A stretch of 64,000 nucleotides of DNA, from the NCBI GenBank assembly GCA_016927115.1, contig JAFGNH010000170.1:7541-71540 (forward strand), read 5' to 3'. The stretch's first letter is position 1. Each line of letters begins with the position of its first letter. This document shows positions 459 to 62,883 of this stretch, piece after piece. The notes under the pieces are model-generated. The model ran no database searches. It was not told where the DNA came from and saw only the letters and a list, made by a program, of their open reading frames with translations. A program made the translations under genes and the position numbers. This stretch comes from Anaerolineales bacterium (GTDB taxonomy: Bacteria > Chloroflexota > Anaerolineae > Anaerolineales > E44-bin32).

Positions 459-838
459 TCAGGAACCCTCCCGGTAGACTGCTGTGCACATATAGAGCGT
501 CTATCCTTGCGACAGAGTCTCCAGATTAATTACAGTCTAGCCATTCTTCCAGAAGGATGCAACCCTCAGACACGGTATTCATGAATCTGCCGCAGCCTGA
601 CAAAGCAGTTCTGTATTATGTCTGCAAAGCAAGATTCCCAATTCTTGTAACACATAAACCGAATCTTCTCTTCGAGCAGCAACCTGGCAGTACCGAAGCT
701 GGTGGACTTGATTTACGTTACAGAGTAATCTCGCCTGGAATGAATCCATTGGCTGAGTCGCGTCAAATGAAGGTTGCTTCGAACGCTCGTCTCATTCCGA
801 AAAACATTTTGGTGTAACTTCGTTATCTGCCTTTACCT

Positions 839-898
839 TGCGTTTACTTTTCTTTCCGCAATTCTTTACATACCTCACATTACGAATAACTTAGACTT
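839..898 (+). promoter_or_regulatory. conserved upstream element, copy 1 (TGCGTTTACNTTTCTTTCNGCANNNCTTTACA-N20-TTAGNCTT), 48 nt before the 947 start codon
   Basis: The 32-nt block is 27/32 identical to 9779..9810. The 20-nt spacer length and the distal octamer (TTAGACTT vs TTAGTCTT) are the same. The flanking intergenic sequence is not conserved. Confidence 0.4.
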
Positions 899-946
899 GT
901 TTCGAGGTTTGGTCTATTAAATTTATGAGAGAGGTGACGTGGAGCT

Positions 947-2515
947 ATGACAGAACCCACGATCAACAGCCTGTTGAAAAAGGCTGAATCCCACGCGTTA
1001 AACAGCGATTGGCTGAATTCCATAGCTGCCCTGCAGCAGGTACTGCAGCTGGAACCTCAGCATGCAGCAGCAAATTTCACACTCGGCACACTGCTGATGG
1101 AAACCGGCAGTCCTGCAGAAGCGATCTCCTATCTGCGAGCCTGTATCCTGACCACCCCCGATCACGAAGAAGCATCCGTCAGCCTGGCCAAAGCTCTGGC
1201 GCAGACTAATAAATTCCAGGAAGCCGAACGGATCCTGACCGGGATCACAGGGAATAACCCCGAGAATCGCAGCGCATGGAATGCGCTGTCCCAGATTCTG
1301 ATCCTTCAGGATAACCGTATCAGTGAAGCAGTCCAGATTCTGGCGGCACTGGTTCAGACCGATCCTACCGATCCCGATGCTCTGTACCTGATGGGCAAAG
1401 TGTATGAAAGTGTTGAAGATACCAATTCTGCACTTGAAATGTATCACCAGATACTGCGTCACCATCCTTCAGAACAAAGAGCCCAGGCCGCGCTGCAGGG
1501 TCTTGGAGAACCCACTACCGGCATTACTCTGCCTTCGGTATGTTTTATCGGTCCTCCCACATTCTCCACGGAAAACAGGTTGGGGCTTCCCGCAAGAGAG
1601 TTGTCCGGATTGGGCTACCCTGTTTCGGTGCATACATCCTGGGATCAGAGTATGGTGGCTCCTGATATTTTCGTTTTCAGTGAACCTCATTCAAATCCTG
1701 TATTCCTGGAAGCGTTCCTTCAGAGCAAAGCTGCGGGGAAAAAAGCATTTGTCAATCTGGATCTGCACTACCCCTCACTGACCAGCAACCATCCCAGGTA
1801 CCATGAGTCCGGCCCCGGGAACCCGGAAGGTATCCAGGCCCTGGAACATATCCTGGATTCAGCCGATATGCTTTTAACTTCCAGCCAGGCACTGTCGGAT
1901 GCATATCAAAAACCGGGGCGTCCAATCCAGATGTTCCCGCCTGTCTGGAATCCCGGAAACGAATTATGGCATAAACCACCTGAGAAGCGGGAAAAAATTC
2001 ATCTCGGTCTGATAGGTTCTCAGCTGCAGAAAGGTGATGCAGAAGTGTTGAAGGGTCCTGTTGAGACGCTATTTGACCTTAACGAAAATCTTATGCTTAT
2101 GGTACTTGAGGACTTTTCTCTGCTCGACCTTTTCAGCGGGATCAACGAACAGCGCAAGCTGTTCCTCCCCGCTGGTCGTTTCGAAGATTATCCCTATCAG
2201 CTCTCTCATATAGATATCCTGTTGATTCCAGGCGGGGATTCCCCCATCCATCAGACTCGTTCGGATCGGCCTCTGCTGGAAGCCGGTATCCGCCGCATTC
2301 CCTGGGTGGCTTCTCCCTGCCCCTCCTTTAAAGATTGGCATGAAGGGGGTATTCTGATCGAGAAACCGCTGGATTGGTTATCAACTCTGGAAAACCTGAT
2401 CGCCGGGGAAGAATTACGTTCTGTGCTTGGTGAAGCCGGAAGCCGGCAGGCACAGAGCCGCACTATAAGGCAGTCCATTTCGAGATGGCAGGAACTGATC
2501 CGGAGCGTACTCTGA
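947..2515 (+). CDS. TPR-repeat protein with C-terminal GT-B-like (glycosyltransferase-like) domain, paralog 1
   Basis: 522-aa ORF. The N-terminus has TPR-like repeats (LQQVLQLEPQHAAANFTLG..., AISYLRACILTTPDHEEA). The C-terminus (SDRPLLEAGIRRIPWVASPCPSFKDW) is clearly homologous to the C-termini of the ORFs at 9913 and 11586. Confidence 0.6.
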   Translation: MTEPTINSLLKKAESHALNSDWLNSIAALQQVLQLEPQHAAANFTLGTLLMETGSPAEAISYLRACILTTPDHEEASVSLAKALAQTNKFQEAERILTGITGNNPENRSAWNALSQILILQDNRISEAVQILAALVQTDPTDPDALYLMGKVYESVEDTNSALEMYHQILRHHPSEQRAQAALQGLGEPTTGITLPSVCFIGPPTFSTENRLGLPARELSGLGYPVSVHTSWDQSMVAPDIFVFSEPHSNPVFLEAFLQSKAAGKKAFVNLDLHYPSLTSNHPRYHESGPGNPEGIQALEHILDSADMLLTSSQALSDAYQKPGRPIQMFPPVWNPGNELWHKPPEKREKIHLGLIGSQLQKGDAEVLKGPVETLFDLNENLMLMVLEDFSLLDLFSGINEQRKLFLPAGRFEDYPYQLSHIDILLIPGGDSPIHQTRSDRPLLEAGIRRIPWVASPCPSFKDWHEGGILIEKPLDWLSTLENLIAGEELRSVLGEAGSRQAQSRTIRQSISRWQELIRSVL

Positions 2516-2550
2516 CACATACACGGATCCGTTCTCTACCGGGAGTCATC

Positions 2551-2727
2551 ATGCAAAAAACCAGTAATCTGAATGAATACTTACAGAAGGCGCTTAACCT
2601 GTTCCAGGAGGTCAAACTGGATGAATCAAGAATGTGGATTGACCGCATCATCGAGAAAGATCCATATTATTGGCAGTTCCCGATCGGTGGAAAGCAGCCC
2701 CAGCCTGGGTGGTGCCCAGAGAAGTGA
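2551..2727 (+). CDS. small ORF, TPR-like fragment (58 aa); possibly a gene remnant
   Basis: ATG at 2551 is preceded by GGGAG. The peptide MQKTSNLNEYLQKALNLFQEVKLDESRMWIDRIIEKDPYY resembles a single TPR helix pair. It is short and has no other support. Confidence 0.25.
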   Translation: MQKTSNLNEYLQKALNLFQEVKLDESRMWIDRIIEKDPYYWQFPIGGKQPQPGWCPEK

Positions 2728-2828
2728 TTTTTTTAGAATCGACCGCCCGTACGCAGAGGGCCTGGGTGGATGTCTGTCAACAGATTATGGTTCACGGCAA
2801 ATCCGCCCAATAATTAAGGAAAACGGCT

Positions 2829-5800
2829 ATGCAAATAAAACCCTTCCCGAAAAAACTCAGCAACCTCAAGGACCGCTTCAGAGGCCGGCGAGCCTTCATC
2901 CTGGGCAATGGGCCCAGCCTGACCGACCTGGATCTTTCCCACCTGGAGAATGAGTATACCTTCGGCGTGAACAGCATCTTCTACCTGTTTGAAGAAATCG
3001 GATTCAAACCATCTTTCTATGTCGTGGAAGACACGCTTGTGGCAGAAGACCGTGCTGCCGAGATTAATGAGCTCGACGGAATGGTCAAAATTTTCGGGAC
3101 GTATCTAAATTACTGCATAAACGACAGTAAAAATACTTTATGGGCGAACGTTCTTTTTAATTACGAAAACTATTCCGGTTTTCCCCACTTCTCGAGAGAT
3201 GCCTCCCAATGCCTCTGGGTGGGCGGCACCGTATCCTATGTCTGCATGCAGCTCGCCTATATGATGGGTTTTGATCCTGTTTACCTGATCGGCTTCGACC
3301 ACTCATATAACATACCTGACGATGCAGATATCGAAGGCACCATCATCACTTCAACTTCTCAGGATCCCAACCATTTCCACCCCGAATACTTCGGCAAAGG
3401 AAAACGATGGCATCTGCCCAGAGTTGACCGCATGCAGCTGTCTTACCTTAAAGCAAAAAAGGTCTTTGAACAGGATGGCAGGCAGATCGTCAATGCTACG
3501 GCCGGCGGAATGCTTGAGGTCTTCCCCCGTATCGCGTACGCCGCTATTTTTAAGGACGACGAAACGCGCAGCGGTAAGGATCAGAAAACAGCTGGAAAGC
3601 CCTCGAAAAAAGCAGCGGAAACCCCGCCTCCTGATCTCTCCGTTATCGTCTGTACCTACAACAACCATGTTTCTCTGGTAAACACCCTCGAAAGCCTCTA
3701 CCAGCAGAGCCTCTCACCTGACCGGTACGAAGTGCTGGTAGTGGATAATAATTCCGATGACCAGACAAAAGCTATATCAACGTCCTTCCCCCGTTGTAAA
3801 TATGTATTTGAGGAGAAACAGGGACTTGCCCAGGCACGAAACACGGGCATCGCTGAAGCAACCGGCCGCATAATCGCCTTTATCGATGATGATGCGGAAG
3901 CTGATTTCGAATGGCTCAGCAGAATTCTTGCCGCTTTTGAAAAAAACGAAAACATTTGGGCCGCGGGCGGGAAAGCCCTGCCGATCTGGGACGCAGAAAA
4001 GCCTGCCTGGCTTACCGAAACCTATTACCGTTCCCTGAGCCTGCTGGACTGGGGTGAAAATATCCGGCCGCTGGCCTGGCCGGAAAGGATCATCGGGACA
4101 AATTGCGCATTTCGTAAAGCAGTCTTCGAGGAAATCGGACGCTTCCAGACAGACCTTGGACGGGTCGGTTCTGTGCTGCTCGGTAATGAGGATACAGAAA
4201 TCCAGGAACGAATCCACGAAACCGGGCACCAGGTTCTCTACGTGCCTGATGCAATCGTTCACCACCACGTACCTGCAGATCGAATGACAGAGGCATATCT
4301 CCAGAAGCGGGATGAAGGGCACAGAATCTCGCAGCAGATCCTGCAGCTGCGCACAGAGGGCAAAGAAGCAGAAGCAAAAAAGATGGCGGAGAATTATATA
4401 CTCCAGCAGCAGCTTAAGGAACATGAAGCTACTATCAACCGCACCCTTCCTCAGTCGAACCTCAGACTGGCAACCTACAAGGATATCCATCGTGGGCAGC
4501 GCTGTGTGATCATCGGAAACGGACCCAGTCTGAACGACATGGATCTCTCCTTCCTGAAAAACGAAATTACCTTCGGTACCAATCGGATCTATCTGGGTTT
4601 CGAGCGCTTCGGTTTTACACCGGATTACTACCTTTCCATTAATCCGCTTGTGATCGAACAGAGTACAGAGGAAATCCTGGCCGTTCCCGCGCCAAAATTC
4701 CTCAGCCTGCATGGGATCAAACATATCCCTGAAGATCGCGAGGATGTAATGTACCTCCAGAGTGTGGACAGCCCGATTTTTTCTCGTGATCCTCGCTCAG
4801 GAATCTGGGAAGGATATACCGTTACCTATGCAGCGCTTCAGCTTGCCTACTATATGGGATTCTCCGAGATTTACCTGATTGGCTGTGATCACAGCTTCGC
4901 CACGACCGGCCCTGCCAATGCCGAAATCACCTCACAGGGAAAAGACCCGAATCATTTTGATTCTTCCTATTTCGGCAAGGGAACACGCTGGCATCTGCCC
5001 GACCTGGTTAACTCCGAGATGGCATACGGCCTGGCGAGGATGGTGTATGAGGCGGAAGGACGGCACGTATACGATGCAACGCTGAATGGAAAATTGAAGG
5101 TATTTCCGAAAGTGGATTATCGTGAATTCTTCCTCGATTCCCCCCCGGATAAAGAAATTCCTGCAAAACTTCAAACAGGTGAAACCATACAAGGGTCTCC
5201 GATCCTGGTCAGCGCCCTGGTATCCACATATAACGATGAGAAGCTGCTGAGAGCCTGCCTGGATGATCTTGAAAATCAGACTATCGCTGATCGAATGGAA
5301 ATCATTGTGATCGACAGCGGTTCCGAGCAGAATGAAGCTGCCATCGTTGCGGATTTCCAGGAACGGTACGCAAATATCCTGTATATCCGCACAGAGCGTG
5401 AGAGCCTGTACCAGGCGTGGAACCGCGGCATTCTGAAAGCCCGTGGCCGGTATATCACCAACGCAAATACTGACGACAGTCACCACCCGGAAGCGCTGGA
5501 AAAACTGGTCGCCGCACTGGAAACACATCCGGAAGCAGATCTGGCATATGCCGACTGCCAGTGGAGCGCCAGGCCGAATGATTCCTTCAACTCAGCCGAC
5601 ACTCTGCGTGACATCCATTATCCAGCCTTCCACCCCGCCCTGAACATGCTTTACTGCCCTCTCGGCCCTCATCCTGTCTGGCGCAGAAAAACATTTGAAA
5701 AGATCGGCCTGTTTGATGCACGCTTCAAAGCAGCCGGTGATTACGAATTCCTGCTTCGCTTTACCGCTGCCGGACTGAATGCAGTTCATGTACCCGAATT

Positions 5801-8800
5801 ACTGAGCGTTTTCTATCAGAACACCAGCGGGCTGACACTCGGTGCCAATGTGTCCGAAGAAGAGAACATGCGCATCCTGAACCGCTACCGCTCCTCTACC
5901 CCTATCCAATCGATCTGCCGGGTCACACCTGGCGATAAAACCAGCGAAGCGCTGGCATGGACTGCACTCGGAAATCAGGCCATCCGTTACCAGGTCCCCT
6001 GGCTTGATGAACCTGTCTCAGACCCGAACTATGCTGCTTACTGCTACCTTAAAGCAATCGAAACAGAGCCCATCATACCAGCGCTGAACAACCTGATCGC
6101 TGTGCTGGGCGCCATGGGGAACTGGGATCAGTGTGAAGCTCTTCTGGCCCAGCTTCCACCCGGAGAAATGCCCGAAATGCGACGTACAGTGACACAACGC
6201 GAGGTGCTGCAGCTGCTGCCTGTCGACATCGAACCCGCTGTGCAGCCGCTTTCCTGTCAAGTGGAACAACCGGAGCCTGCAGTAAGACCGCACAGTTCTC
6301 CGTCCAGCAGTTCAGCTCCCGAGGGATTCAACGTTATCAGCTACGCCAGCGGCAACCTGGGTATCGGTGTAACCGCCCGCAATGTCATCCAGCTTCTGCT
6401 TGACCACGGGTATCCTGTTTCCATCCTCGACATCGATCCCGGATTCGGCCGCGGCGGGAAAGACCTGCGCTTCCAGATGCATACCGTCCCCAATCCGGAA
6501 GATCTGCCTCACTCGATCAACCTCTTCATTCTCCCGCCCGGGGATCTCAGCGCTGTTCTGCAGCAGGCAGGAAGCCGCTTCTCCATGCAGCAGCGGTTGA
6601 ACGCCGCCTTCAGTATGTGGGAACTCCCTCGACTTCCCAGGGATTGGATTCCGACCCTTGAAGCAATGGATGTATTGATCGCGGAATCCGCCTTCATCGA
6701 GCATGCATTCAGTTTCAATCTCTCCGGTGTACACACAATCGCCGCCGACCATCCGCTCTATCTGCCGGATCGAATTCAGCCCAATCGTGCCCGGTTCGGC
6801 CTTCCTGAGGATGGCTGCCTGTTCATTACCAGCTTTGAACCATTCAGTGATCCCCAGCGCAAAAATCCGATGGCGGTGGTGCAGGCATTCGAAATGGCTT
6901 TCAAGCAAGAAAATAACACTCATCTGATCCTCAAGCTGAATAATGCCCAGCATGAAGGATCGTTCCATCCACTGGTTGAAGCGCTCCAGAAGCGCTGTCT
7001 GGCAAACCCTGACATCCATATCCTTAGCGAGACACTCACATATCGGGAAGTGCTGGAGTTATATGCCAGTTGTGACAGCTTTGTCTCGCTCCACCGTGCT
7101 GAAGGGCTCGGCCTGGGCCCCATGGAAGCGATGGCTCTCGGAAAACCTGTCATCGCTACCGGATGGTCGGGGAATTTGAGCTATATGAACCATACCAATG
7201 CCTGTTTGGTCGGGTATCGGCTCATCCCGGTTGATGGCACGATTCCGGCTTACAACCGGGAACGACTGGGTAGTGGAGCTGTGTGGGCTGACCCTGACCC
7301 GGCAGAAGCAGCTGCCTGGATGCGCCGCCTTGCCGAAAATCCCGAACTCCGAAGCACGATCGGCGGGAAGGCACAGCAAGCGATCCGGAACCACCACAAA
7401 AAAGCTGAACAAGCGTTGTTTATCGAGGAACTGCATGCCATCTGGCGGCAAAAACAGCTGTTTACGAATTTCCAACCGGTCAGCAGCTTCCATACAGAAT
7501 CATCAGTACAAAAAGCTGCAGATCTTAAAGATGCATCTGTAGATATCGTCATCCCTGTCTACGGACAGGCCGACCTGCTCAAGCGCTGTGTGAACAGCGT
7601 GCTGGAAACGACAGAAAAAGCACACCTGATCCTGGTCGATGACTGCAGTCCGGACAGTGAAATTCAGGAAGTTTTCTCCACCTGGGAAAACAACCCGCGC
7701 GTCACACTGGCTCGTACGCTTCAGAACTCCGGCTTTATCGGGTCTACACGACTGGGGGCAGGCATCGGTAACGCGCCTTTCATCCTGTTTCTCAACTCCG
7801 ACACAGAGGCCCCGGAAGCCGGATGGCTGGAGGCCCTTATCCCTGAAGAACCGGATATCGCCGTCACCGGTGCAAAACTGCTGTACCCGCCCGACGCGCC
7901 CGAGCCTTTTGCCGGAACGATCCAGCATGCCGGTGTAGCCCGAAATAACCTTGGCGTTCCGTACCACCCATTCATCGGCCAGCCCGGAACTATCCCGGAA
8001 GCATCGCTGGCAAAAGATATCAACGCGATAACCGGAGCCTGCTTCCTTGTTCGTCGTGAAGTCTGGGAACGGCTGGGAGGCTGGAATCCCGCTTTTGGAC
8101 GTGGTGTGTATGAGGATGTTGATTTCTGCTGGAGAGCTCGTTCACAGGGCTTCCGTGTCCGTTATAAGCCGGGTGCTGTGCTGTATCACCATGAAAGCGC
8201 CAGTCGGAGCGAGAATGGCCGACATTCCCTTAACGAACATATGTCCGCGAACCTGTCTACACTTCTGGAAAGCTGGCCGGGTATTACTTCCGATGAAGCG
8301 CTCTTTTACGCTCCGGAAGTCATCTCAGGCTGGCGACAGGCGGAACAACTGCTGCAGCGTGCACAGAGAGAGCTTTCTGAAGGAAAATTCCAGGCTGCAG
8401 TGCAGACCATGCAGTTAGCTGTGAAGGCAGCACCAAATCAGCCTGAAGTCCTGATTGGCTATGCACAGCTTCTCCTCCAGCAAAACAAGCACAAACCGGC
8501 CCTCGAGTCCCTTTATGCTGCGGTAGCCAATGCTCCCACACACTGGAGCGCACGGTTCCTGCTGATGGATACCCTCATCAACACACACAACGCTGCTGAA
8601 GCCTGGCAGCAAAGCCAGATCCTGCTGCACTATTTCCCCGAAAACGAGGAAATAAAACAGCGCAGAAGGCAGATCCTGTCCATGGACCCCACCCTGGTGT
8701 CTCCGAGCAGCACATCCCGTGCAGAACAACTGCTCGAAAAGCTCCTGCAGTCAGAAGATATGGTTGCCCTGCTGGAAGAACATAGAGAGGAATTGGATGG

Positions 8801-9410
8801 AACATTCCTCAGCCTTGTCCAGGAGTATGTGAATACAGCTGAAAAACAGGGTCATTTCGAAGTAGCCGCAGCCATGACAAACCTTATGGTTTATGTTGAG
8901 CAAGTATTGGCTTCCAGCTCTTCCGGTCTGGAAAAACTCAATCCGGATCAGATTCTCAATTATCTGCTCGATGCAGCAGACCCGGTGCAGGCACTCGTTG
9001 ATACAGAGCCATTCTTTACCGATGCTCTCCTCGACCATATCGAAGAGCAGGCTTTCCACTCCGCAACAAGCGGGAACAAGGGGATGTCTGCCGGCTACCA
9101 TGAACTCGCTGATTATGTCCGTGATGTCCTGCAGAAAACGAACGGAAGGGGAAGCCTCCCCGATGCAGAAATCTTGCTGCAGGAAATCCTTGCCGCTGAG
9201 GACATCCTTACTGTTCTGCAGAAGAATGAACACAGGTTGACACCCGCACTTCTGCACCTTGTTCAGGACAACATCCATGAGGCAGAAGCCCATGGCATGG
9301 AGGAAGTTGCCCGGGCACTCGAACATCTCGAAACATACCTGCAGCATCTTCTCGTTCCAGCCGCGCTGTCGGCTGCAGATAATGCCGAAATGACAAAAGA
9401 AGAAGACTGA
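2829..9410 (+). CDS. giant multi-domain glycosyltransferase (2 Maf/DUF115-like + 3 GT2 + 1 GT4 + TPR + C-terminal repeats), 2193 aa
   Basis: A single uninterrupted ORF. Two GNGPSL...GGTV/GYTV..QLAY.MGF..YLIG.DHS modules each carry DPNHF..YFGKG.RWHLP. Three GT2 signatures are present (VIVCTYNN..DDDAE; LVSTYND..NTDD; VIPVYG..LVDDCSPD..NSDTE). One GT4 EX7E motif is present (EGLGLGPME..GKPVIAT). See the domain sub-features. Confidence 0.85.
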   Translation: MQIKPFPKKLSNLKDRFRGRRAFILGNGPSLTDLDLSHLENEYTFGVNSIFYLFEEIGFKPSFYVVEDTLVAEDRAAEINELDGMVKIFGTYLNYCINDSKNTLWANVLFNYENYSGFPHFSRDASQCLWVGGTVSYVCMQLAYMMGFDPVYLIGFDHSYNIPDDADIEGTIITSTSQDPNHFHPEYFGKGKRWHLPRVDRMQLSYLKAKKVFEQDGRQIVNATAGGMLEVFPRIAYAAIFKDDETRSGKDQKTAGKPSKKAAETPPPDLSVIVCTYNNHVSLVNTLESLYQQSLSPDRYEVLVVDNNSDDQTKAISTSFPRCKYVFEEKQGLAQARNTGIAEATGRIIAFIDDDAEADFEWLSRILAAFEKNENIWAAGGKALPIWDAEKPAWLTETYYRSLSLLDWGENIRPLAWPERIIGTNCAFRKAVFEEIGRFQTDLGRVGSVLLGNEDTEIQERIHETGHQVLYVPDAIVHHHVPADRMTEAYLQKRDEGHRISQQILQLRTEGKEAEAKKMAENYILQQQLKEHEATINRTLPQSNLRLATYKDIHRGQRCVIIGNGPSLNDMDLSFLKNEITFGTNRIYLGFERFGFTPDYYLSINPLVIEQSTEEILAVPAPKFLSLHGIKHIPEDREDVMYLQSVDSPIFSRDPRSGIWEGYTVTYAALQLAYYMGFSEIYLIGCDHSFATTGPANAEITSQGKDPNHFDSSYFGKGTRWHLPDLVNSEMAYGLARMVYEAEGRHVYDATLNGKLKVFPKVDYREFFLDSPPDKEIPAKLQTGETIQGSPILVSALVSTYNDEKLLRACLDDLENQTIADRMEIIVIDSGSEQNEAAIVADFQERYANILYIRTERESLYQAWNRGILKARGRYITNANTDDSHHPEALEKLVAALETHPEADLAYADCQWSARPNDSFNSADTLRDIHYPAFHPALNMLYCPLGPHPVWRRKTFEKIGLFDARFKAAGDYEFLLRFTAAGLNAVHVPELLSVFYQNTSGLTLGANVSEEENMRILNRYRSSTPIQSICRVTPGDKTSEALAWTALGNQAIRYQVPWLDEPVSDPNYAAYCYLKAIETEPIIPALNNLIAVLGAMGNWDQCEALLAQLPPGEMPEMRRTVTQREVLQLLPVDIEPAVQPLSCQVEQPEPAVRPHSSPSSSSAPEGFNVISYASGNLGIGVTARNVIQLLLDHGYPVSILDIDPGFGRGGKDLRFQMHTVPNPEDLPHSINLFILPPGDLSAVLQQAGSRFSMQQRLNAAFSMWELPRLPRDWIPTLEAMDVLIAESAFIEHAFSFNLSGVHTIAADHPLYLPDRIQPNRARFGLPEDGCLFITSFEPFSDPQRKNPMAVVQAFEMAFKQENNTHLILKLNNAQHEGSFHPLVEALQKRCLANPDIHILSETLTYREVLELYASCDSFVSLHRAEGLGLGPMEAMALGKPVIATGWSGNLSYMNHTNACLVGYRLIPVDGTIPAYNRERLGSGAVWADPDPAEAAAWMRRLAENPELRSTIGGKAQQAIRNHHKKAEQALFIEELHAIWRQKQLFTNFQPVSSFHTESSVQKAADLKDASVDIVIPVYGQADLLKRCVNSVLETTEKAHLILVDDCSPDSEIQEVFSTWENNPRVTLARTLQNSGFIGSTRLGAGIGNAPFILFLNSDTEAPEAGWLEALIPEEPDIAVTGAKLLYPPDAPEPFAGTIQHAGVARNNLGVPYHPFIGQPGTIPEASLAKDINAITGACFLVRREVWERLGGWNPAFGRGVYEDVDFCWRARSQGFRVRYKPGAVLYHHESASRSENGRHSLNEHMSANLSTLLESWPGITSDEALFYAPEVISGWRQAEQLLQRAQRELSEGKFQAAVQTMQLAVKAAPNQPEVLIGYAQLLLQQNKHKPALESLYAAVANAPTHWSARFLLMDTLINTHNAAEAWQQSQILLHYFPENEEIKQRRRQILSMDPTLVSPSSTSRAEQLLEKLLQSEDMVALLEEHREELDGTFLSLVQEYVNTAEKQGHFEVAAAMTNLMVYVEQVLASSSSGLEKLNPDQILNYLLDAADPVQALVDTEPFFTDALLDHIEEQAFHSATSGNKGMSAGYHELADYVRDVLQKTNGRGSLPDAEILLQEILAAEDILTVLQKNEHRLTPALLHLVQDNIHEAEAHGMEEVARALEHLETYLQHLLVPAALSAADNAEMTKEED
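2880..3550 (+). other. domain: Maf/DUF115 (MptE-like) or GT42-like nonulosonic-acid-transferase-type module, copy 1
   Basis: RAFILGNGPSLTDLDLSHL..FGVN...GGTVSYVCMQLAYMMGFDPVYLIGFDHSY...QDPNHFHPEYFGKGKRWHLP. Confidence 0.55.
3636..4300 (+). other. domain: GT2 (GT-A fold) glycosyltransferase, copy 1
   Basis: LSVIVCTYNNHVSLVNTLESLYQQS..VLVVDNNSDDQT..GLAQARNTGIAEATGRIIAFIDDDAEAD. Confidence 0.7.
4465..5132 (+). other. domain: Maf/DUF115-like module, copy 2
   Basis: RCVIIGNGPSLNDMDLSFL..FGTN...GYTVTYAALQLAYYMGFSEIYLIGCDHSF...KDPNHFDSSYFGKGTRWHLP. It is colinear with copy 1. Confidence 0.55.
5199..5830 (+). other. domain: GT2 glycosyltransferase, copy 2
   Basis: ILVSALVSTYNDEKLLRACLDDLENQT..IIVIDSGSEQNE..LYQAWNRGILKARGRYITNANTDD. 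Confidence 0.65.
6325..7445 (+). other. domain: GT4/GT1-type (GT-B fold) glycosyltransferase
   Basis: FNVISYASGNLGIGVTARN... then SLHRAEGLGLGPMEAMALGKPVIATGWSGNLSYM (EX7E motif). Confidence 0.65.
7539..8210 (+). other. domain: GT2 glycosyltransferase, copy 3
   Basis: VDIVIPVYGQADLLKRCVNSVLETT..LILVDDCSPD..NSGFIGSTRLG..FLNSDTEA..ITGACFLVRREVWERLGGW..YEDVDFCWRARSQGF. Confidence 0.7.
8381..8650 (+). other. domain: TPR-like repeats
   Basis: GKFQAAVQTMQLAVKAAPNQPEVLIGYAQLLLQQNKHKPALESLYAAVANAPTHWSARFLLMDTLI.. Confidence 0.5.
8721..9407 (+). repeat. three tandem ~73-aa helical repeats at the C-terminus of the giant protein (starts near 8721, 8943, 9162)
   Basis: AEQLLEKLLQSEDMVALLEEH..FLSLVQEYV..; PDQILNYLLDAADPVQALVDT..LLDHIEEQA..; AEILLQEILAAEDILTVLQKN..LLHLVQDNI... 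They share the pattern x-[ED]-x-[IL]L-x2-[IL]L-x2-[ED]D/P-x3-[AV]L. Confidence 0.5.
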
Positions 9411-9778
9411 GAAATCCGTGCAAAATAAAAAGCGAGTGGCAGGAATGCCTGTTGACACAAACGGGCCTTGAAAATAATCCCGTCTGGATCCTCTCGCATG
9501 CCTGAAAGAGCAGCAGCAGGTGCCCGGATTTTCGACCAATTCGGAGATGGAAAATGTGCCTCAACCTGACGATAAATCACCCTGATTCAACTGACTGAGA
9601 ACACGCTTGATAAAAGCAGCACTGGAGTATCTGACACGGGCCAGGAAAACTGACCCGGCAAACCTGGAAACCTTTCAAGTATCCGAATGGTTTCTGCACA
9701 GTTGCACAGGTTTCTACGGGGCAGGCTGACTGACACGATAAACATCAATTTTTATCATGTTTCACCTATCCTTTAGGG

Positions 9779-9838
9779 TGCGTTTACGTTTCTTTCAGCA
9801 CCCCTTTACAGACCGTTCAGCAATTGGCTGTTAGTCTT
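9779..9838 (+). promoter_or_regulatory. conserved upstream element, copy 2, 74 nt before the 9913 start codon
   Basis: See 839..898. The architecture is identical: a 32-nt block, N20, then TTAGTCTT. Confidence 0.4.
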
Positions 9839-9912
9839 AGGAATGATGTAGTAGCTTCGATTCTCCATATCTAATCATATACAGTGGGATCCGATGGGCT
9901 GGTTAATTTTAC

Positions 9913-11589
9913 ATGTCTGATCTTGAATTTCGCAAACAACTTGGGCGATCACATCTTAATGCAAACAAACTGGGGCTCGCCCTGAGTATTTTTGCAGAGC
10001 TGGTTGAGGAATACCCGGATGATGTTGAAAGCCACATCATCCTGGGTGACTGCTATCTGGCTGGTGCAGATTATCAGTCCGCACAGCAGTTATATCAGCA
10101 AGCCCTGCAGATAGATCCCGACTCTGCTGATATTATTCGACGGCTGCAATTGACCCAGGCAGAATTGCTTAAGCAGGAACATTTGCCTGAATCATTCAGG
10201 CTTCCGACCAGCAAAGACAGCCTGTCGATGCTCCTGCAGGAACTTACCGGGAGAACCGGTCCGGTTGCAGACAACGAAATCCGCAGTGCAGCAGATCTGC
10301 TGCAGGAGATGGTCAACAGCAGCCAACCCGCAGAAGTTGTTGCCAGGCATCTCGACCAGATCGATGTCCTCCTGCCCGCTCTTCTGGAATTGAACATCAA
10401 ACAGGCCGAAGCAGATGGGAAACCCGACCTCGCTGCCGCACTGCAAATTCTTCAGGAGAATATCCAGCTCCAGAAAAAGAGTTTCCCGACCTACCCCCAG
10501 GCTCCCATGATTGAGAACCTTTCGGAGCCAGACAGAAACATTCGTTTGCTGATCATCCACCCTGCCGGATATCCATCCGCGCGACAGTTACAGATCCGGC
10601 AATCTCTCCAGCATATTAAAACTCTGGAACTGGTTGACATGGATCAGGATGTGGATTCGGCACTACCTGAAGAAATTGATCTTGTGCTGGCGTTCAACCC
10701 ACACACTGATGCAGGAATCATCAAAAAACTGGCGGACCTGGCATCAGGAAATATCCCGGTCGTTCTGGATCTGGAAACCGATTTCGAAAATCTCCCGATC
10801 CACCACCCACAGTACCCTCTGCTGGGATTGGGAACAGCAGCCCGTGCCAAAACGTACTCCGCCTGCCTATCTCTGGCTGACGTTATAACAACACCCTCCT
10901 ACATCCTGGGAGCCCAGCTGAAAACAATGGGGCATGAAACCGTTTTCCTCCCCGATGGATGGGATCCAGAGAATCCACTATGGCAAAAGGAATCTCCCCA
11001 GCGACAGACCATCAACATTGGCTGGATAGGTTCTCCGGGTTATCTTGAAGATATTGCTTCGGTCCGGCGATCCATTGTCCGCATACTCAGGGAATTTCCC
11101 CAGACGCAGCTTGTCATCAGCGGCGATCCACAGGTTTATCAGCTTTTCGATAATCTGCCAGAATACCGGCGGGTATTCCTTCCTCAGGTAGACCAAGAGG
11201 ATTTTCCATCTCTCCTTGCCCAACTGGATATCCGTCTTGTTCCGATGCGCAACACCGTATATAACCGATCTTCATCTGATCGCCCTCTCCTTGAAGCAGG
11301 TATACGTAAGACTCCCTGGATTGCATCCCCTATCCCTGCTTTTAAGAACTGGGCGGCTGGAGGACGGATCTTACACAATCGGGAGGATTGGTACACCTGT
11401 CTGAAAACACTCATTCAGGATCCCAATTTAATCCGGATGCTCGGTTATGAAGGATTCCAGACAGCACAGGAACGGTCTGTTATTGAACTCAGTAAACAGT
11501 GGCAAAAGCTGCTTGTCAGCCTGATGTCACGATCGACACAGCTTGTCCGGGAAAGCGGCCAAACAACTGTATCAGAAAGGGCTTCATGA
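9913..11589 (+). CDS. TPR-repeat protein with C-terminal GT-B-like domain, paralog 2
   Basis: 558-aa ORF with N-terminal TPRs (ALSIFAELVEEYPDDVESHIILGDCYLAGADYQSAQQLYQQALQIDPD). The C-terminus SDRPLLEAGIRKTPWIASPIPAFKNW is near-identical in pattern to the 947 protein. Confidence 0.6.
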   Translation: MSDLEFRKQLGRSHLNANKLGLALSIFAELVEEYPDDVESHIILGDCYLAGADYQSAQQLYQQALQIDPDSADIIRRLQLTQAELLKQEHLPESFRLPTSKDSLSMLLQELTGRTGPVADNEIRSAADLLQEMVNSSQPAEVVARHLDQIDVLLPALLELNIKQAEADGKPDLAAALQILQENIQLQKKSFPTYPQAPMIENLSEPDRNIRLLIIHPAGYPSARQLQIRQSLQHIKTLELVDMDQDVDSALPEEIDLVLAFNPHTDAGIIKKLADLASGNIPVVLDLETDFENLPIHHPQYPLLGLGTAARAKTYSACLSLADVITTPSYILGAQLKTMGHETVFLPDGWDPENPLWQKESPQRQTINIGWIGSPGYLEDIASVRRSIVRILREFPQTQLVISGDPQVYQLFDNLPEYRRVFLPQVDQEDFPSLLAQLDIRLVPMRNTVYNRSSSDRPLLEAGIRKTPWIASPIPAFKNWAAGGRILHNREDWYTCLKTLIQDPNLIRMLGYEGFQTAQERSVIELSKQWQKLLVSLMSRSTQLVRESGQTTVSERAS

Positions 11590-12722
11590 AAATCGTTTAT
11601 GTCTATGCAGACAATCAGCGTGAGTGGAATTGCAGCGAATGGCGCTGTGCCGTCCCTGCTCGTGCAATCAATCGCACAAAAGGGCACCAGGCTGTTTTAC
11701 TCTGGATAGAAGATTTTATGAGGACATCGCCAGCGGCAGTGGATACCTGTCAAGATGCAGACCTGATTGTAGTTCAGCGCAACCTCTTTGGTCCAACACT
11801 GGCAGCTATACAGCACTGGAAAGCGCGCGACCGGGTGGTTATTGCGGATTTTGATGATGCCTATGATCTGATGCCCCCCAGTGTAGGCAGCTACGATTTC
11901 TGGAGGCACGGGATCGCCAGTGAAAATGGTACTCCTCTCGAGAATGTCCAGCGTGTCGATCCACCACCTATTACTCAGTTCCGCTGGGGTCTTCGTCTGG
12001 TGCATGCAGCAACTGTGCCTTCCAAACGGCTTGCAGACGACTGGTCAACATACACTTCAATAAACTACGTTCCAAACTACATTGATCTTGAAAAATACAC
12101 ATCCGCTGCGCCTGTTCCACACGAAGGAATACATATAGGCTGGGGAGGAAGTCTCTCTCATTTCGACAGCTTTAATCATCAAGGTGTGTTGACAGCATTG
12201 AAAAGGATTTGTCAGAGCAGACCGCAGGTGAAAATTCTGATTAATGGGTCCAACAGGGAAATCTTTGATCTGCTGCCCGTTCCTCAGAACCAGAAAATCC
12301 TTCGACCCTGGGTCCCCTATGATCAATGGGCACGCGAACTGGCTACCTATGACATTGGACTTGCGCCCTTGAATGGCCCATATGATGACCGTCGCAGCTG
12401 GATAAAGGTGCTGGAATACCTTGTTTTGAAAATCCCCTGGGTCGCATCTGAAGGTCCGGCTTATCATGAACTGCGACCGTACGGCTGGCTGGTGCAAAAC
12501 AGTGCCCAGTCATGGGAAAGAGTTCTGTTGGATATGATTGATCATATCGATGACTATCGTGCAGAGGCAAGCAGGGAAGCATATCTATATGGAATCAGTC
12601 AGAGCATAGATGGCAATATTGATAAGTCACTCTCAATTTATGCAGAAATTATCGAAAAAGCCAGAGGGGTCAGAGTCAATCCATCCATTAAGGTAGAAGC
12701 TGAAACAAAGCGTGGGAGCTAA
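11586..12722 (+). CDS. GT-B-like glycosyltransferase-like protein, paralog 3 (no TPR region)
   Basis: The ATG at 11586 overlaps the upstream stop (ATGA), so I prefer it over the ORF-track start at 11499. The sequence MKIVYVYADN... then IGWGGSL..WIKVLEYLVLKIPWVASEGPAY aligns with the C-terminal halves of the 947 and 9913 proteins. Confidence 0.6.
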   Translation: MKIVYVYADNQREWNCSEWRCAVPARAINRTKGHQAVLLWIEDFMRTSPAAVDTCQDADLIVVQRNLFGPTLAAIQHWKARDRVVIADFDDAYDLMPPSVGSYDFWRHGIASENGTPLENVQRVDPPPITQFRWGLRLVHAATVPSKRLADDWSTYTSINYVPNYIDLEKYTSAAPVPHEGIHIGWGGSLSHFDSFNHQGVLTALKRICQSRPQVKILINGSNREIFDLLPVPQNQKILRPWVPYDQWARELATYDIGLAPLNGPYDDRRSWIKVLEYLVLKIPWVASEGPAYHELRPYGWLVQNSAQSWERVLLDMIDHIDDYRAEASREAYLYGISQSIDGNIDKSLSIYAEIIEKARGVRVNPSIKVEAETKRGS

Positions 12723-12726
12723 GAAA

Positions 12727-13521
12727 ATGTTAGGTTCAAAAAAAGCAGCAATCGATTTTGATGAGCAGCCTTTACCTTCCGCAACACTTCAGATTCGAAT
12801 CCCGGCAGGCGAATTCATCATGGGAACCAGCAACCAGCAGATCCAGAGTCTGTTGAGGACTGAAGAATGGGCAAACGAATGGATAGAGAAGGATCTGTTC
12901 AAGATTGAACAACCACAGCACATAATCGCTCTTCCGGCCTACTCAATCGCTCGTACTCCGGTCATCAATCATGAATATCAGGAATTTATCCTTGACACGA
13001 ACCATCGCGTACCTCGCCATTGGATGGGTTTTTCCTTTCCTGAAGAAACTGAAAACCACCCGGTAACGGAAGTATCTCTCGCCGACGCACTCGCCTTCTG
13101 CAGCTGGCTCTCCAAAAAGACAGGTTCTACCTTCCGCCTCCCCACTGAAGCCGAATGGGAACGAGCGGCACGGGGCGATGACGGGCGTATGTATCCCTGG
13201 GGAAATGAATTCGATCCCTGGCGCTGCAACACGAAGGAGCGCGGTAAATCCGGTGCCACACCGATTTTGAGCTACTCACCGGGTGGAGACAGCCCCTGGG
13301 GTGCGGCCGATATGTCCGGGAATGTGATGGAATGGACACACAGCACTATGCAGCCATATCCATTCAAACAAATACCGCCTCAATCCGGCAAGGAGGAATG
13401 TGTGGTAAGAGGAGGATCATGGTATTACAGCCGACGTCTGGCACGATGCTCTTCACGTGAAACAGTTCTATCCACACTCACCTCCCCGGCTCTTGGCTTC
13501 CGGGTTGTTCAGACAGACTGA
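12727..13521 (+). CDS. formylglycine-generating-enzyme (FGE/SUMF1, DUF323) domain protein
   Basis: HPVTEVSLADALAFCSWLSKKTGSTFRLPTEAEWERAARG..YPWGNEF...GNVMEWT...VRGGSWYYSRRLARCSSR is the characteristic FGE-sulfatase fold signature. I prefer the ATG at 12727 over the GTG at 12712. Confidence 0.7.
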   Translation: MLGSKKAAIDFDEQPLPSATLQIRIPAGEFIMGTSNQQIQSLLRTEEWANEWIEKDLFKIEQPQHIIALPAYSIARTPVINHEYQEFILDTNHRVPRHWMGFSFPEETENHPVTEVSLADALAFCSWLSKKTGSTFRLPTEAEWERAARGDDGRMYPWGNEFDPWRCNTKERGKSGATPILSYSPGGDSPWGAADMSGNVMEWTHSTMQPYPFKQIPPQSGKEECVVRGGSWYYSRRLARCSSRETVLSTLTSPALGFRVVQTD

Positions 13522-13586
13522 CATAGTACACTCCCCACCTGTACCTGATCCGTAACAGCAGGACCGTAAATTACACCTGACTCCCG

Positions 13587-13618
13587 ACCGGTGCGTTGCA
13601 CCGGTTATTTCTATCGTT
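13587..13618 (+). terminator. intrinsic terminator after the glycosylation operon
   Basis: Perfect 8-bp stem ACCGGTGC-gtt-GCACCGGT (13587..13605) followed by the T-rich run TATTTCTATCGTT. Confidence 0.55.
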
Positions 13619-13698
13619 GTAAGATAAACCCTTCACGCGATTCTCCAGCCGGATCCCCCCTGCCAAAAAGATATTTACGGTTCTTTTACGCTCGAGTC

Positions 13699-13725
13699 TA
13701 AAGTCTTTCCAGCCCCAACCGATAA
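13699..13725 (+). promoter_or_regulatory. sigma-28 (FliA/SigD) promoter of the flagellin gene
   Basis: cTAAAg-N15-aCCGATAA compared with the consensus TAAA-N15-GCCGATAA. It lies about 180 nt upstream of the flagellin ATG. Confidence 0.7.
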
Positions 13726-13865
13726 CAGAGCATAACAGAAACAAATGAAGGTAATTCTTATTCGGAGGTGTCCATCGAATAATTACTTCAGCAAGACCAA
13801 CCTTGACGCTGAACTTGGGGCTCCAGTCAGTGTCGCCTCTCTCGAATTGGAGCCAAACCAAATCT

Positions 13866-13900
13866 TAGGGAAGGATCCCTATTTTTCGATAACAAGGAGG
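13866..13900 (+). promoter_or_regulatory. putative CsrA binding sites in the flagellin 5' leader (GGA hairpin plus GGA in the Shine-Dalgarno)
   Basis: UAGGGA-AGGA-UCCCUA is a perfect 6-bp stem presenting AGGA in its loop (13866..13881). The SD AAGGAGG at 13894..13900 contains a second GGA. csrA and fliW are both in this window. Confidence 0.5.
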
Positions 13901-13905
13901 TTATC

Positions 13906-14760
13906 ATGGCAGGTGTAGACCTAACTCGTATTGCTGGAAATATCCAGGCACTGAATTCACTGAACTCACTGAACAAGATCAACAATCAGCTGGCAGCTCA
14001 TCAGCTGCGGCTCTCGACCGGCAAGCAGATCAATGAAGCGGCCGACGATCCTGCGGGCATGAGTATTGCCACAACTTTCGATATCCGCCGCCAGAGCCTG
14101 TCCACGGTTCTCAAATCCATTGGTGACGGCAAGAACTTGCTTGCTACCGCTGAAGGTGGTTTGACCAAGATCCAGGACATTCTGGTCAAGATGAAGAATA
14201 AAGCCCTCGAAGCACAGGGCGACACCATCGGTGCTGACGAGAAGGCAGCCATCCAGAAACAGGTTGTCTCCTTCAGAAACGAAATCGATGATATCGTCAG
14301 CGCCACTGAATGGAACGGCACAAAGCTGCTTTCCGGTTCCGCAGGCAGCGGGACCCCAAGCTCTCTGGCCTTCCTGACCGGCGCAGATGGCAGCACCACA
14401 TCCTTCGATCTCGGACAGGGTTTCGCGATCAGCGGCAGCGGCACATCCGGCATCAACCTGAGCGCCATCGATGTCAGCAGCAGCGCCTCAGCAGCGATGA
14501 CAGCTATCAATTCGGCCATCGATCTGCTCAAGACCGGTATTGCCGATGTCGGCTCCTTCACCGCTCGTTTGACCTTCAAAGAAGAAGCTCTCACAATCGC
14601 TCATGCCAACACCGAAGCGGCATACAACCGGATTATGAACGCCGATATGGCAAACGAACAGGTGCAGGCAAGCAAGCTGATGATCCTGCAGCAAACAGCA
14701 ACGGCCATGCTTTCTCAGGCCAACATGGCTCCACAGTTCGTTCTGTCTCTGTTCCAGTAA
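13906..14760 (+). CDS. fliC: flagellin (short form, 284 aa)
   Basis: The N-terminus LNSLNKINNQLAAHQLRLSTGKQINEAADDPAGMSIA and the C-terminus NRIMNADMANEQVQASKLMILQQTATAMLSQANMAPQFVLSLFQ are canonical flagellin D0/D1 segments. Confidence 0.95.
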   Translation: MAGVDLTRIAGNIQALNSLNSLNKINNQLAAHQLRLSTGKQINEAADDPAGMSIATTFDIRRQSLSTVLKSIGDGKNLLATAEGGLTKIQDILVKMKNKALEAQGDTIGADEKAAIQKQVVSFRNEIDDIVSATEWNGTKLLSGSAGSGTPSSLAFLTGADGSTTSFDLGQGFAISGSGTSGINLSAIDVSSSASAAMTAINSAIDLLKTGIADVGSFTARLTFKEEALTIAHANTEAAYNRIMNADMANEQVQASKLMILQQTATAMLSQANMAPQFVLSLFQ

Positions 14761-14783
14761 GCTTGAAACACACGATAGTCCAC

Positions 14784-14805
14784 GGGGAGCACAGCAGTGC
14801 TCCCC
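14784..14805 (+). terminator. hairpin downstream of flagellin (terminator or attenuator)
   Basis: GGGGAGCAC-agca-GTGCTCCCC is a 9-bp GC-rich stem. The trailing U-tract is weak (GTACTAGTTTG), so read-through into fliD is plausible. Confidence 0.45.
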
Positions 14806-14848
14806 GTACTAGTTTGAAACCAGAACCGGTAACTCCTGAGGGAACCTG

Positions 14849-16519: not shown

Positions 16520-16576
16520 ACAGAAAATTATTGAACAAGGAAGTTCAATTCGAACGGAAAACCAAGGAGGGTAGTT

Positions 16577-16912
16577 ATGAGTGATCGATATATTTCATCC
16601 ATTGGATCTTCTGATCCAGATTACACCGGCAGCATGCATCAGATGGAATCTTATTCCCGGGTAAAATCAGCCGAGGCTGGTATGCCGCGGGGAGACCCGG
16701 AACCGAAAAAAGCGGAGCTTCGAGAAACAAACAGCGGACACTCCCAGGTAACAAAGCCTGCCAGTGTCCATCTGCAGTTTAAAATAGATCCATCAACCAA
16801 CGATATCACTGTCATCGTGATGGATCGTGAGTCAGAGCAAATCATTCGCACAATTCCTCCTGAGGAATTGAATGATCTGGTTGAAGGCGATCTGCTTGAA
16901 ATACTGACCTGA
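16577..16912 (+). CDS. flaG: FlaG family flagellar protein
   Basis: The C-terminal motif VHLQFKIDPSTNDITVIVMDRESEQIIRTIPPEELNDL matches the FlaG family. Its position after fliD fits. Confidence 0.75.
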   Translation: MSDRYISSIGSSDPDYTGSMHQMESYSRVKSAEAGMPRGDPEPKKAELRETNSGHSQVTKPASVHLQFKIDPSTNDITVIVMDRESEQIIRTIPPEELNDLVEGDLLEILT

Positions 16913-16979
16913 ATAATATAGCTGCTGCCCGGAACGACAGGAAAGCAATATGCCTGTCGGACAACCCTCTGCATCCCTG

Positions 16980-17015
16980 AAAAAAAACCTGGCCAACGCC
17001 AGTTTGTTTGGCGTT
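16980..17015. terminator. A-tract plus overlapping alternative hairpins downstream of flaG (possible terminator; strand ambiguous)
   Basis: aaaaaaaaCCTGGCcaacGCCAGtttgtttgg fits a + strand reading. Alternatively AACGCCA-gtttgtt-TGGCGTT is preceded by A8 on +, which is a U-tract on the - strand 7 nt after the stem. The stems are short. Confidence 0.3.
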
Positions 17016-62882: not shown

Positions 62883-62883
62883 A

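Follow-up and report, generated by a model that had tools for sequence, protein, structure and literature searches.

As usually described, flagellin is glycosylated by enzymes of a single domain (Maf, FlmG, GmaR, and small GT2 or GT4 proteins), each of which adds one sugar. Here, we report a giant glycosyltransferase (GT) gene in a 64-kb stretch of contig JAFGNH010000170.1 from an Anaerolineales bacterium; this whole stretch is referred to below as the window. The gene encodes one polypeptide of 2193 amino acids (aa) carrying six GT modules, followed by a tetratricopeptide repeat (TPR) domain and three helical repeats, and stands in a same-strand block directly 5′ of the flagellin gene (4.5 kb downstream of the giant and 11 kb from its first module). 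We propose, with a probability of about 0.6, that the protein is a soluble cytoplasmic multimodule enzyme that makes or lengthens a hetero-oligosaccharide carried by flagellin, as part of a flagellin glycosylation island. What the analysis itself shows is the domain identities, the integrity of the gene, its conservation, and its genomic linkage to flagellin and to enzymes resembling the O-linked N-acetylglucosamine transferase OGT.

The open reading frame (ORF) is preceded by a Shine-Dalgarno-like sequence (AAGGA) ~8 nt 5′ of its ATG. Its product is identical to a deposited protein on a 102-kb contig (NCBI MBN1267431.1, “MAG: glycosyltransferase [Anaerolineales bacterium]”; MAG, metagenome-assembled genome), and in that sense it is already known, under an automatic annotation. 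An identical 2193-aa ORF was present in an independent Logan assembly of SRR13394437. One ortholog (P0002, 77% identity) has 2207 aa in all three of its separate assemblies (JGI, ENA, and Logan), and another (P0003, 59% identity, 2267 aa) has the same domain order as the giant. An assembly chimera, a concern raised in the original prediction that had been made from the DNA sequence, was rejected together with a frameshift fusion, given the independent assemblies and the diverged full-length orthologs on independent contigs that keep the ORF. The GC content goes up along the gene, from 0.49 to 0.57.

The catalytic modules are 76 to 85% identical to those of P0002 and 61 to 73% identical to those of P0003; the corresponding ranges for the linkers, TPR domain, middle region, and repeats are 57 to 87% and 36 to 49%. 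Because synonymous sites are saturated among the orthologs (dS, >1.5), dN/dS is ≤0.1 wherever it could be calculated, and the motifs GNGPS, IGxDH, DPNHF, and EX7E are retained in three orthologs with the frame intact, these comparisons indicate that all six modules are under purifying selection. The maximum 19-residue Kyte-Doolittle mean of the giant protein was 1.27, which gives no transmembrane segment, and no signal peptide was found in it; both results fit action in the cytoplasm.

Pfam was run on the whole protein and on eight segments of it, and all catalytic-domain scores lay above the gathering thresholds (Table 1). The domain order is DUF115, GT2, DUF115, GT2, GT-B (GT4-like), GT2, TPR, and three 63-aa helical repeats. 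The uninterrupted ORF, the order of modules, and the six GT-type calls (DUF115, GT2, and GT-B) made in the original prediction were all borne out, with qualifications for two of the labels. The “GT4” label was upheld in that PF00534 scored above its cutoff (45.7 bits; cutoff, 26.4; PF13692, 41.9 bits) and an EX7E motif (EGLGLGPME, conserved in three orthologs) is present, but it derives solely from the Pfam GT1-group match and this motif, not from a CAZy classifier; “Maf-like” is taken up below. Summed over the whole protein, PF00535 reached 248.5 bits. The closest solved sequences to GT2 module a were chondroitin synthase, 6YV7, and GmaR, and module c had an NCBIfam MftF-like match (3e-25) and weak PDB matches to polypeptide GalNAc-transferases. 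From the PDB and NCBIfam neighbors, the sugars used by the GT2 and GT-B modules could not be assigned, all matches being far below equivalog cutoffs. Judged by their motifs, all six modules are predicted to be catalytically intact: two short GT42/Maf-superfamily modules, three inverting GT-A/GT2 modules, and one retaining-type GT-B module. The regions between them are less conserved. The charged linker between the duplicated cassettes is 37% identical to that of P0003 and diverges faster than the catalytic modules, and the middle region (36% identity to P0003) is among the two least conserved parts of the protein.

The first two DUF115-GT2 pairs had been read as an internal duplication, and the alignment agrees: residues 9 to 476 match residues 545 to 992 at 33% identity over 478 residues (E, 3e-74). 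The shared motifs named for the two copies, GNGPSL, QLAY...DHS, and DPNHF, are indeed present in both, but the spacers in the last two motifs are of three residues, not two (QLAY.MGF...YLIG.DHS and DPNHF...YFGKG.RWHLP); the last motif lies at residues 179 to 197 and 706 to 724. The two DUF115 copies within the giant are 41% identical to each other, whereas orthologous modules of the core (Maf1-GT2a-Maf2-GT2b) are 59 to 73% identical across phyla, which points to a duplication that is ancient and not local.

To define the DUF115 modules, we aligned 31 diverse copies from the giant and its database relatives. Residues N27-G28-P29-S30-L31, G147, G155, D157, F183, Y187, and F232 (module 1 numbering) were invariant, and N48, D179, N181, and H182 were nearly so. 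The AF2 model of module 1 (pLDDT, 92.6; pTM, 0.91) had the Magnetospirillum Maf 5MU5 as its top Foldseek match (E, 3.3e-6; probability, 1.00; query-normalized TM-score, 0.53), followed by the archaeal protein MptE (8SD5; E, 5e-5) and then GT29 sialyltransferases. The profile of the 31 modules matched the GT42 enzymes Cst-II and Cst-I and a lipo-oligosaccharide sialyltransferase (1RO8, 1RO7, 2P2V, and 9C08) at 6e-11 to 6e-8 over ~140 residues, and Maf 5MU5 at 3e-5, aligning only to residues 269 to 436 of the latter. Alignment with hhalign to Escherichia coli WaaZ, associated with the third 3-deoxy-D-manno-octulosonate (Kdo) residue, gave a probability of 92%, and the precomputed Pfam list for the giant includes PF27901 (WaaZ_KDO_III). 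WaaZ is the enzyme that we take to be CAZy family GT73. No NCBIfam model matched either DUF115 module. Each module is only ~240 aa long, is followed directly by a GT2 module, and is without the N- and C-terminal helical domains of Maf. Canonical Maf membership was therefore rejected, and the label “Maf-like” holds only at the superfamily level (PF01973 and the 5MU5 fold), with a profile nearer to Cst-II. Sequence profiles and the structural model together place the modules in a short (~240-aa) subfamily of the PF01973 branch of the Maf/GT42/WaaZ superfamily. Characterized GTs of this superfamily use ulosonic acids activated by cytidine monophosphate (CMP), such as Kdo, N-acetylneuraminic acid (Neu5Ac), pseudaminic acid (Pse), and legionaminic acid (Leg). 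The subfamily is large, with 4109 representative clusters at an E value of ≤1e-30 and 9192 at ≤1e-10; stand-alone modules of ~270 to 300 aa occur in Bacteroidota, Chloroflexota, Alphaproteobacteria, and other groups, and database labels range over pterin pyrophosphokinase-like proteins, FkbM methyltransferases, and generic glycosyltransferases.

The window is occupied throughout by a flagellar and chemotaxis regulon, which we consider complete and which agrees with the flagellar context first proposed. It includes genes for flagellin, FliD, FliF/G/H/I, FliK, FlgE, FliW, FlgL/K, FlgN, rod proteins, FliA, FlhF/A/B, FliR/P/O/N/M/L, MotA/B, and CheR. Proteins containing TPRs lie on either side of the giant. 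Pfam detects only their TPRs, and the original prediction had not recognized them as OGT/SPINDLY-like TPR plus GT-B proteins, which may initiate glycosylation. The AF2 model of the 522-aa protein (pLDDT, 89.5) comprises about nine TPR-like helix pairs (residues 6 to 185) and two Rossmann-like halves (residues 198 to 520); its Foldseek matches were SPINDLY (1e-15), human and bacterial OGT (~4e-13 to 9e-10), and the GT4 enzyme MshA. The 522-, 558-, and 378-aa flanking proteins are paralogous in their C-terminal 170 to 290 residues, some homologs of the flanking proteins carry GT-B Pfam matches (PF13692 or PF13524), and an ortholog of the 378-aa protein has a weak PF13692 match. Accordingly, the TPR-GT-B proteins on the two sides of the giant are candidate OGT/FlmG-like protein O-glycosyltransferases.

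The flagellin has 21 Ser/Thr in the 60 residues of its central loop (aa 141 to 200), and this Ser/Thr-rich loop is the presumed acceptor. The order TPR-GT-B, giant, TPR-GT-B, GT-B paralog, FGE-sulfatase-domain gene, flagellin, FliD, FlaG, and FliS is kept in loci L002/L003 and L006, and the arrangement in L092 is similar. The FGE-sulfatase-domain gene is immediately 5′ of flagellin in the window, L002, and L006, and the flagellin is 92 to 95% identical in the latter two. Directly 5′ of the giant, a Methyltransf_24 plus RGP pair is intact in L002, L005, L006, L092, and L095; its remnants form a deletion scar in the window, and the called 58-aa ORF (~2551 to 2727; gene call in L001), which overlaps the methyltransferase remnant, is probably just part of that scar. 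A scan of positions 500 to 17000 for promoters and terminators returned counts equal to those of shuffled sequence, with a single strong terminator-like hairpin (13586 to 13606) between the FGE-sulfatase-domain gene and flagellin.

Table 1. Features of the giant glycosyltransferase gene, its modules, and its neighbors (window positions; residues of the giant protein given where they apply), with the donor-synthesis cassette of related loci
Feature	Position	Strand	Remarks
TPR + GT-B protein, 522 aa, OGT/SPINDLY/FlmG-like	947-2515	+	TPR matches; candidate protein O-glycosyltransferase
Deletion scar	2551-2789	+	tblastn: 40-aa Methyltransf_24 N-terminal and 31-aa RGP (PF03214) C-terminal remnants
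Giant glycosyltransferase gene	2829-9410	+	ATG start, 2193 aa, no internal stop
DUF115/GT42-like module 1	2844-3563 (aa 6-245)	+	PF01973 at aa 6-161, 64.5 bits (cutoff 34.6); GNGPSL 26-31, IGFDHS 154-159, DPNHF 179-183
GT2 module a	3630-4298 (aa 268-490)	+	PF00535 at aa 271-436, 108.7 bits; DDD 353-355
Charged helical linker between duplicated cassettes, ~55 aa	4299-4475 (aa 491-549)	+	No Pfam match
DUF115/GT42-like module 2	4476-5168 (aa 550-780)	+	PF01973 at aa 550-691, 54.4 bits (cutoff 34.6); GNGPSL 563-568, IGCDHS 684-689, DPNHF 706-710
GT2 module b	5208-5828 (aa 794-1000)	+	PF00535 at aa 795-903, 90.8 bits; TDD 881-883
Middle region, helical/TPR-like, then Pro/Ser-rich linker	5829-6323 (aa 1001-1165)	+	No Pfam match
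GT-B (GT4-like) module	6324-7463 (aa 1166-1545)	+	PF00534/PF13692 on C-terminal half, ~aa 1343-1508; EX7E 1425-1433
GT2 module c	7542-8243 (aa 1572-1805)	+	PF00535 (aa 1572-1745, ~34 bits as segment), PF13641, PF13632; NSD 1656-1658, YEDVDF 1761-1766 (EDVD 1762-1765)
TPR domain	8340-8663 (aa 1838-1945)	+	TPR_19, TPR_14, TPR_16; TPR_19/TPR_14 at aa 1838-1905
Three ~63-aa helical repeats	8721-9353 (aa 1965-2027, 2038-2102, 2112-2175)	+	No Pfam family
TPR + GT-B protein, 558 aa, paralog of 522-aa protein	9913-11589	+	One 63-aa repeat copy
378-aa paralog of GT-B-like domain, without TPR	11586-12722	+	28-30% identity to 522- and 558-aa proteins
FGE-sulfatase-domain protein (EgtB/PvdO-like)	12727-13521	+	PF03781 at 4.7e-47
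Flagellin, 284 aa, D0/D1 only	13906-14760	+	Flagellin_N, Flagellin_C
FliD filament cap	14849-16519	+	First of the flagellar structural genes, which occupy the remainder of the window
GT2/Cyclase/CTP_transf_3/2-Hacid_dh cassette (loci of relatives)	L007 4574-8602; L091 985-5024; L093 7529-9908; L094 3942-7923; L095 2292-6332; L008 2455-5153		

What we infer, from these arrangements and from better-studied systems, is the identity of acceptor and donors, the order in which the modules act, and processivity, if any. Maf enzymes O-glycosylate flagellin in the cytoplasm ahead of export, and a Maf modifies the D1 loop of a short, 297-aa flagellin. By analogy, the 284-aa flagellin would be O-glycosylated on its Ser/Thr-rich exposed D1 loop prior to export. 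The chain would be started by one module of the giant or by the OGT/SPINDLY-like TPR-GT-B enzymes at its flanks, after which each of the other modules would add one linkage type, as in the multimodule O-antigen polymerases, in which each linkage type is served by one GT module (PMC11231755). Up to two of the added residues could be of the CMP-ulosonic-acid type, and the resulting hetero-oligosaccharide would contain up to ~six residue types, or more. In Maf-1 and FlmG, the TPR domain binds flagellin (bioRxiv 10.1101/2023.12.03.569772); by likeness to them, the TPR domain of the giant is a candidate element for binding flagellin or a partner. Most likely, the TPR domain and the three repeats hold flagellin or the neighboring TPR-GT-B proteins, so that the growing glycan could visit adjacent active sites. 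Because the giant has no carrier domain, an “assembly line” is to be taken as an argument from proximity and not as a demonstrated processive mechanism.

The 63-aa repeat might itself be a docking or flagellin-binding element. A single copy was seen in the downstream 558-aa protein (aa 128 to 187; window positions 10294 to 10473), and the repeat is also present in orthologs P0002 to P0005 and in P0013, the copy in P0004 being internal.

Four groups of known enzymes were compared with the giant. With Maf (Magnetospirillum 5MU5, Shewanella Maf-1 and Maf-2, and the Geobacillus and Clostridium botulinum enzymes) it has in common the PF01973/DUF115 catalytic fold and an adjoining flagellin gene, and Maf-1 likewise has a C-terminal TPR domain, which binds flagellin. 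Maf proteins, however, are of ~400 to 820 aa, with N- and C-terminal helical domains around DUF115, whereas the ~240-aa module of the giant is present twice, fused to four other GT modules, with a profile nearer to GT42. No linked Pse, Leg, or Neu (nonulosonic-acid) genes were found in the window and the 10 kb upstream of it. The giant thus falls outside full Maf membership, because the flanking domains and nearby nonulosonic-acid genes are missing. With Campylobacter Cst-I and Cst-II (GT42) and with WaaZ, its DUF115 modules share the GNGPSL nucleotide-sugar loop, a conserved Asn, and a YL(S/I)G(I/F)D strand, and WaaZ equals the stand-alone relatives in size (~270 to 300 aa). This similarity is limited to the N-terminal two-thirds, the DPNHF...YFGKG.RW segment being specific to the subfamily of the giant, and the GT42 and WaaZ enzymes have a single module and act on lipo-oligosaccharide, not on protein.

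WbdA, WbbB, and Klebsiella pneumoniae ORF6-O7 resemble the giant in carrying several GT modules on one soluble chain; in WbbB, for example, two other GT modules accompany a Kdo-transferase module (PMC11231755). These enzymes have two to three GT modules and the giant six, and they come with a coiled-coil ruler, a membrane-association element, and Wzm/Wzt genes, none of which was seen with the giant. Its only counterpart of the ruler is the ~55-aa helical linker at aa 491 to 549, assessed without a coiled-coil predictor, and no ABC-transporter genes were found in the window or its upstream flank; for want of ruler and transporter genes, the giant is not placed in the polymerase-terminator class. 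FlmG (Caulobacter), GmaR (Listeria), and OGT/SPINDLY (GT41) combine TPR and GT for recognition of a protein substrate, as the giant appears to do, but add one sugar with a single GT, whereas the TPR domain of the giant is on a six-module chain with OGT-like genes on both sides. By analogy, the giant may work like a combination of the TPR-guided flagellin GTs (Maf-1, FlmG, and GmaR) and the multimodule polymerases (WbbB and WbdA).

Relatives were examined among the best 120 database hits. The original prediction knew of no described flagellin-associated enzyme with this many catalytic modules in one chain, and we likewise found no paper on such enzymes: full-text searching returned no description of multimodule DUF115/GT2 flagellar enzymes, although its coverage was incomplete and the result is absence of evidence only. 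The protein is not singular, however. Among these hits, 73 have at least two DUF115 modules, and more than 100 giant relatives were found, reaching 8 GT modules and a length of 3448 aa. The exact layout of two DUF115, three GT2, and one GT-B module was seen only in P0001 to P0003. What is new is, apparently, a widespread and undescribed class of giant enzymes, of which this protein is one representative and not a one-off. The syntenic ortholog P0004 of another Anaerolineae genome (2621 aa; L006 10001 to 17866) has two DUF115 and five GT2 modules (seven GT modules in all); two GT2 modules replace the GT-B module, and the flagellin is still 92% identical. This comparison indicates module swapping within the gene, as would be expected for surface-glycan variation on a constant acceptor. 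In Thermodesulfobacteriota, P0008 (3448 aa) has two DUF115 and six GT2 modules.

Of 11 homolog loci whose flanks were usable, 7 have flagellar genes no more than 10 kb from the giant, and 3 of the 7 are in unrelated lineages. The seven are the Anaerolineae loci of P0001, P0002, P0004, and P0005, that of P0006 (between FlgK/FlgL and FliD/FlhB), and those of P0008 and P0012, where the giant adjoins FlaF, FlbT, and a flagellin of 280 aa and 285 aa, respectively; no flagellar genes were within 10 kb of P0009, P0014, P0058, or P0061. A set of 80 genome loci found with the module profile contained no flagellin, but this set is biased (flanks of 10 kb, against a distance of 11 kb between module 1 and flagellin in the window, and mostly stand-alone modules of non-flagellated phyla) and was not used against the linkage. 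The flagellins adjoining giants were all short (280 to 301 aa) and without D2/D3 (window 13906 to 14760; L007 22223 to 23065; L091 25150 to 26007; L092 19872 to 20777). In this small sample, the giants may correlate with minimal flagellins.

A cassette of GT2, Cyclase (PF04199), CTP_transf_3 (PF02348), and 2-Hacid_dh, often with an SDR gene, recurs 5′ of many non-Anaerolineae giants in several phyla. Because it contains an enzyme of the CMP-sugar-synthetase type, the cassette is a candidate for the synthesis of a CMP-activated donor of unusual kind; none of the canonical pathways for Kdo, Neu, Pse, or Leg corresponds to it. A bolder reading, which we consider doubtful at present, is that the giants are a cross-phylum class of flagellar-locus enzymes with an ancient DUF115-GT2-DUF115-GT2 core. 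Such enzymes would make a long, polysaccharide-like heteroglycan with unusual CMP-activated acidic sugars directly on short flagellins of D0/D1 only, the coat in effect standing in for the missing D2/D3, and module swaps within the gene would diversify the filament surface.

Several points weigh against a flagellin-glycosylating role. The window and the 10 kb upstream of it contain no gene for nucleotide-sugar or ulosonic-acid biosynthesis (NeuB/PseI/KdsA-like synthase or CMP-sugar synthetase), and the Cyclase/CTP_transf_3/2-Hacid_dh cassette is absent from the window. Members of the wider DUF115-module family are common in bacteria without flagella (Bacteroidota and cyanobacteria) and in polysaccharide-type loci, so flagellin is not the acceptor throughout the family. 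A long glycan would need to get through the narrow flagellar export channel. In the DUF115 modules, H182 of DPNHF may be the catalytic His, by resemblance of this motif to DNSHY of Cst-II, which contains the catalytic His188; the hidden Markov model alignment stops before this region. Finally, the host is an uncultured MAG, and the giant is known here from sequence and predicted structure.

The first alternative is that the giant assembles a non-protein glycan (envelope, sheath, or capsule-like) on a lipid or other carrier and that its position among flagellar genes reflects co-regulation or chance. Distant giants do occur in polysaccharide-type clusters without flagellar genes, among them P0058 (near an ABC_tran gene, epimerases, and GT2), P0061 (in a cyanobacterium), and P0009 (in a large sugar-biosynthesis cluster), and stand-alone DUF115 modules are common in non-flagellated Bacteroidota. 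The known multimodule GTs WbbB, WbdA, and ORF6-O7, moreover, make lipid-linked O-antigens (PMC11231755). We nevertheless regard this explanation as unlikely, since the window and its upstream flank have no priming phosphoglycosyltransferase, Wzm/Wzt, Wzx/Wzy, or ligase, the giant has neither a membrane anchor nor an extended coiled-coil ruler, its immediate neighbors are flagellin and OGT/SPINDLY-like protein glycosyltransferases, and the linkage to flagellar genes recurs in unrelated lineages (7/11 loci, as above).

A second alternative keeps a protein acceptor and replaces flagellin with another flagellar or surface protein, such as the FliD cap, the hook, a pilin, or an S-layer protein. Soluble GTs bearing TPRs can have other proteins as targets (a cyanobacterial enzyme of this kind, Ogt, reportedly modifies a pilin), and FliD is directly 3′ of flagellin. 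We find this improbable: flagellin is the only neighbor with an obvious Ser/Thr-rich exposed stretch and is the gene that recurs beside the distant relatives P0008 and P0012, and the characterized protein glycosyltransferases of PF01973 all act on flagellin.

Still a little less probable, and overlapping with the other alternatives, is that one or both DUF115 modules are not GTs (an MptE-like pyrophosphokinase or a noncatalytic scaffold), which would leave four true GT modules. The Pfam family is named for the archaeal pterin pyrophosphokinase MptE, which was also the second-best fold match, and no characterized member of the short DUF115 subfamily was found in the literature searched. The profile, however, matches GT42 across all of the nucleotide-sugar-binding half (GNGPSL, the conserved Asn, and a (Y/I)L(S/I)G(I/x)D strand), and the best fold match, Maf, aligns over 272 columns, against 165 to 173 for MptE. 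The additional invariant DPNHF...YF segment, conserved over the 31 diverse modules, is absent from the MptE-length matches, and the DUF115 modules are always fused to other GTs. That the long ORF is an artefact of assembly or of error-fused ordinary genes, as its MAG source and the GC shift along the gene might suggest, is effectively refuted by the identical ORF in a second assembly, the 2207-aa ortholog in three assemblies, the 2267-aa ortholog with the same domain order, and the frame and motifs that are intact at a dS of >1.5.

If the giant does glycosylate flagellin, with six active sites on one polypeptide and OGT-like enzymes at its flanks, no other protein-glycosylation enzyme linked to a flagellum would be as elaborate, and, as a natural “one gene, one oligosaccharide” system in soluble form, it would be of interest to glyco-engineering. 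The analysis also brings to light a large, uncharacterized subfamily of short GT42/Maf-like modules, and it provides a testable pairing of an enzyme, an acceptor (the 284-aa flagellin), and a candidate donor-synthesis cassette.

Elsewhere in the window, the FliW homolog (39218 to 40018) is unusually long, with 265 aa, of which only aa 137 to 254 are the FliW domain, preceded by an unassigned N-terminal extension of ~135 aa. Two HDOD/HD-domain proteins are encoded among the flagellar export and chemotaxis genes (52255 to 53106 and 62037 to 62963), and a GAF-PAS histidine kinase is encoded at 58917 to 60650.

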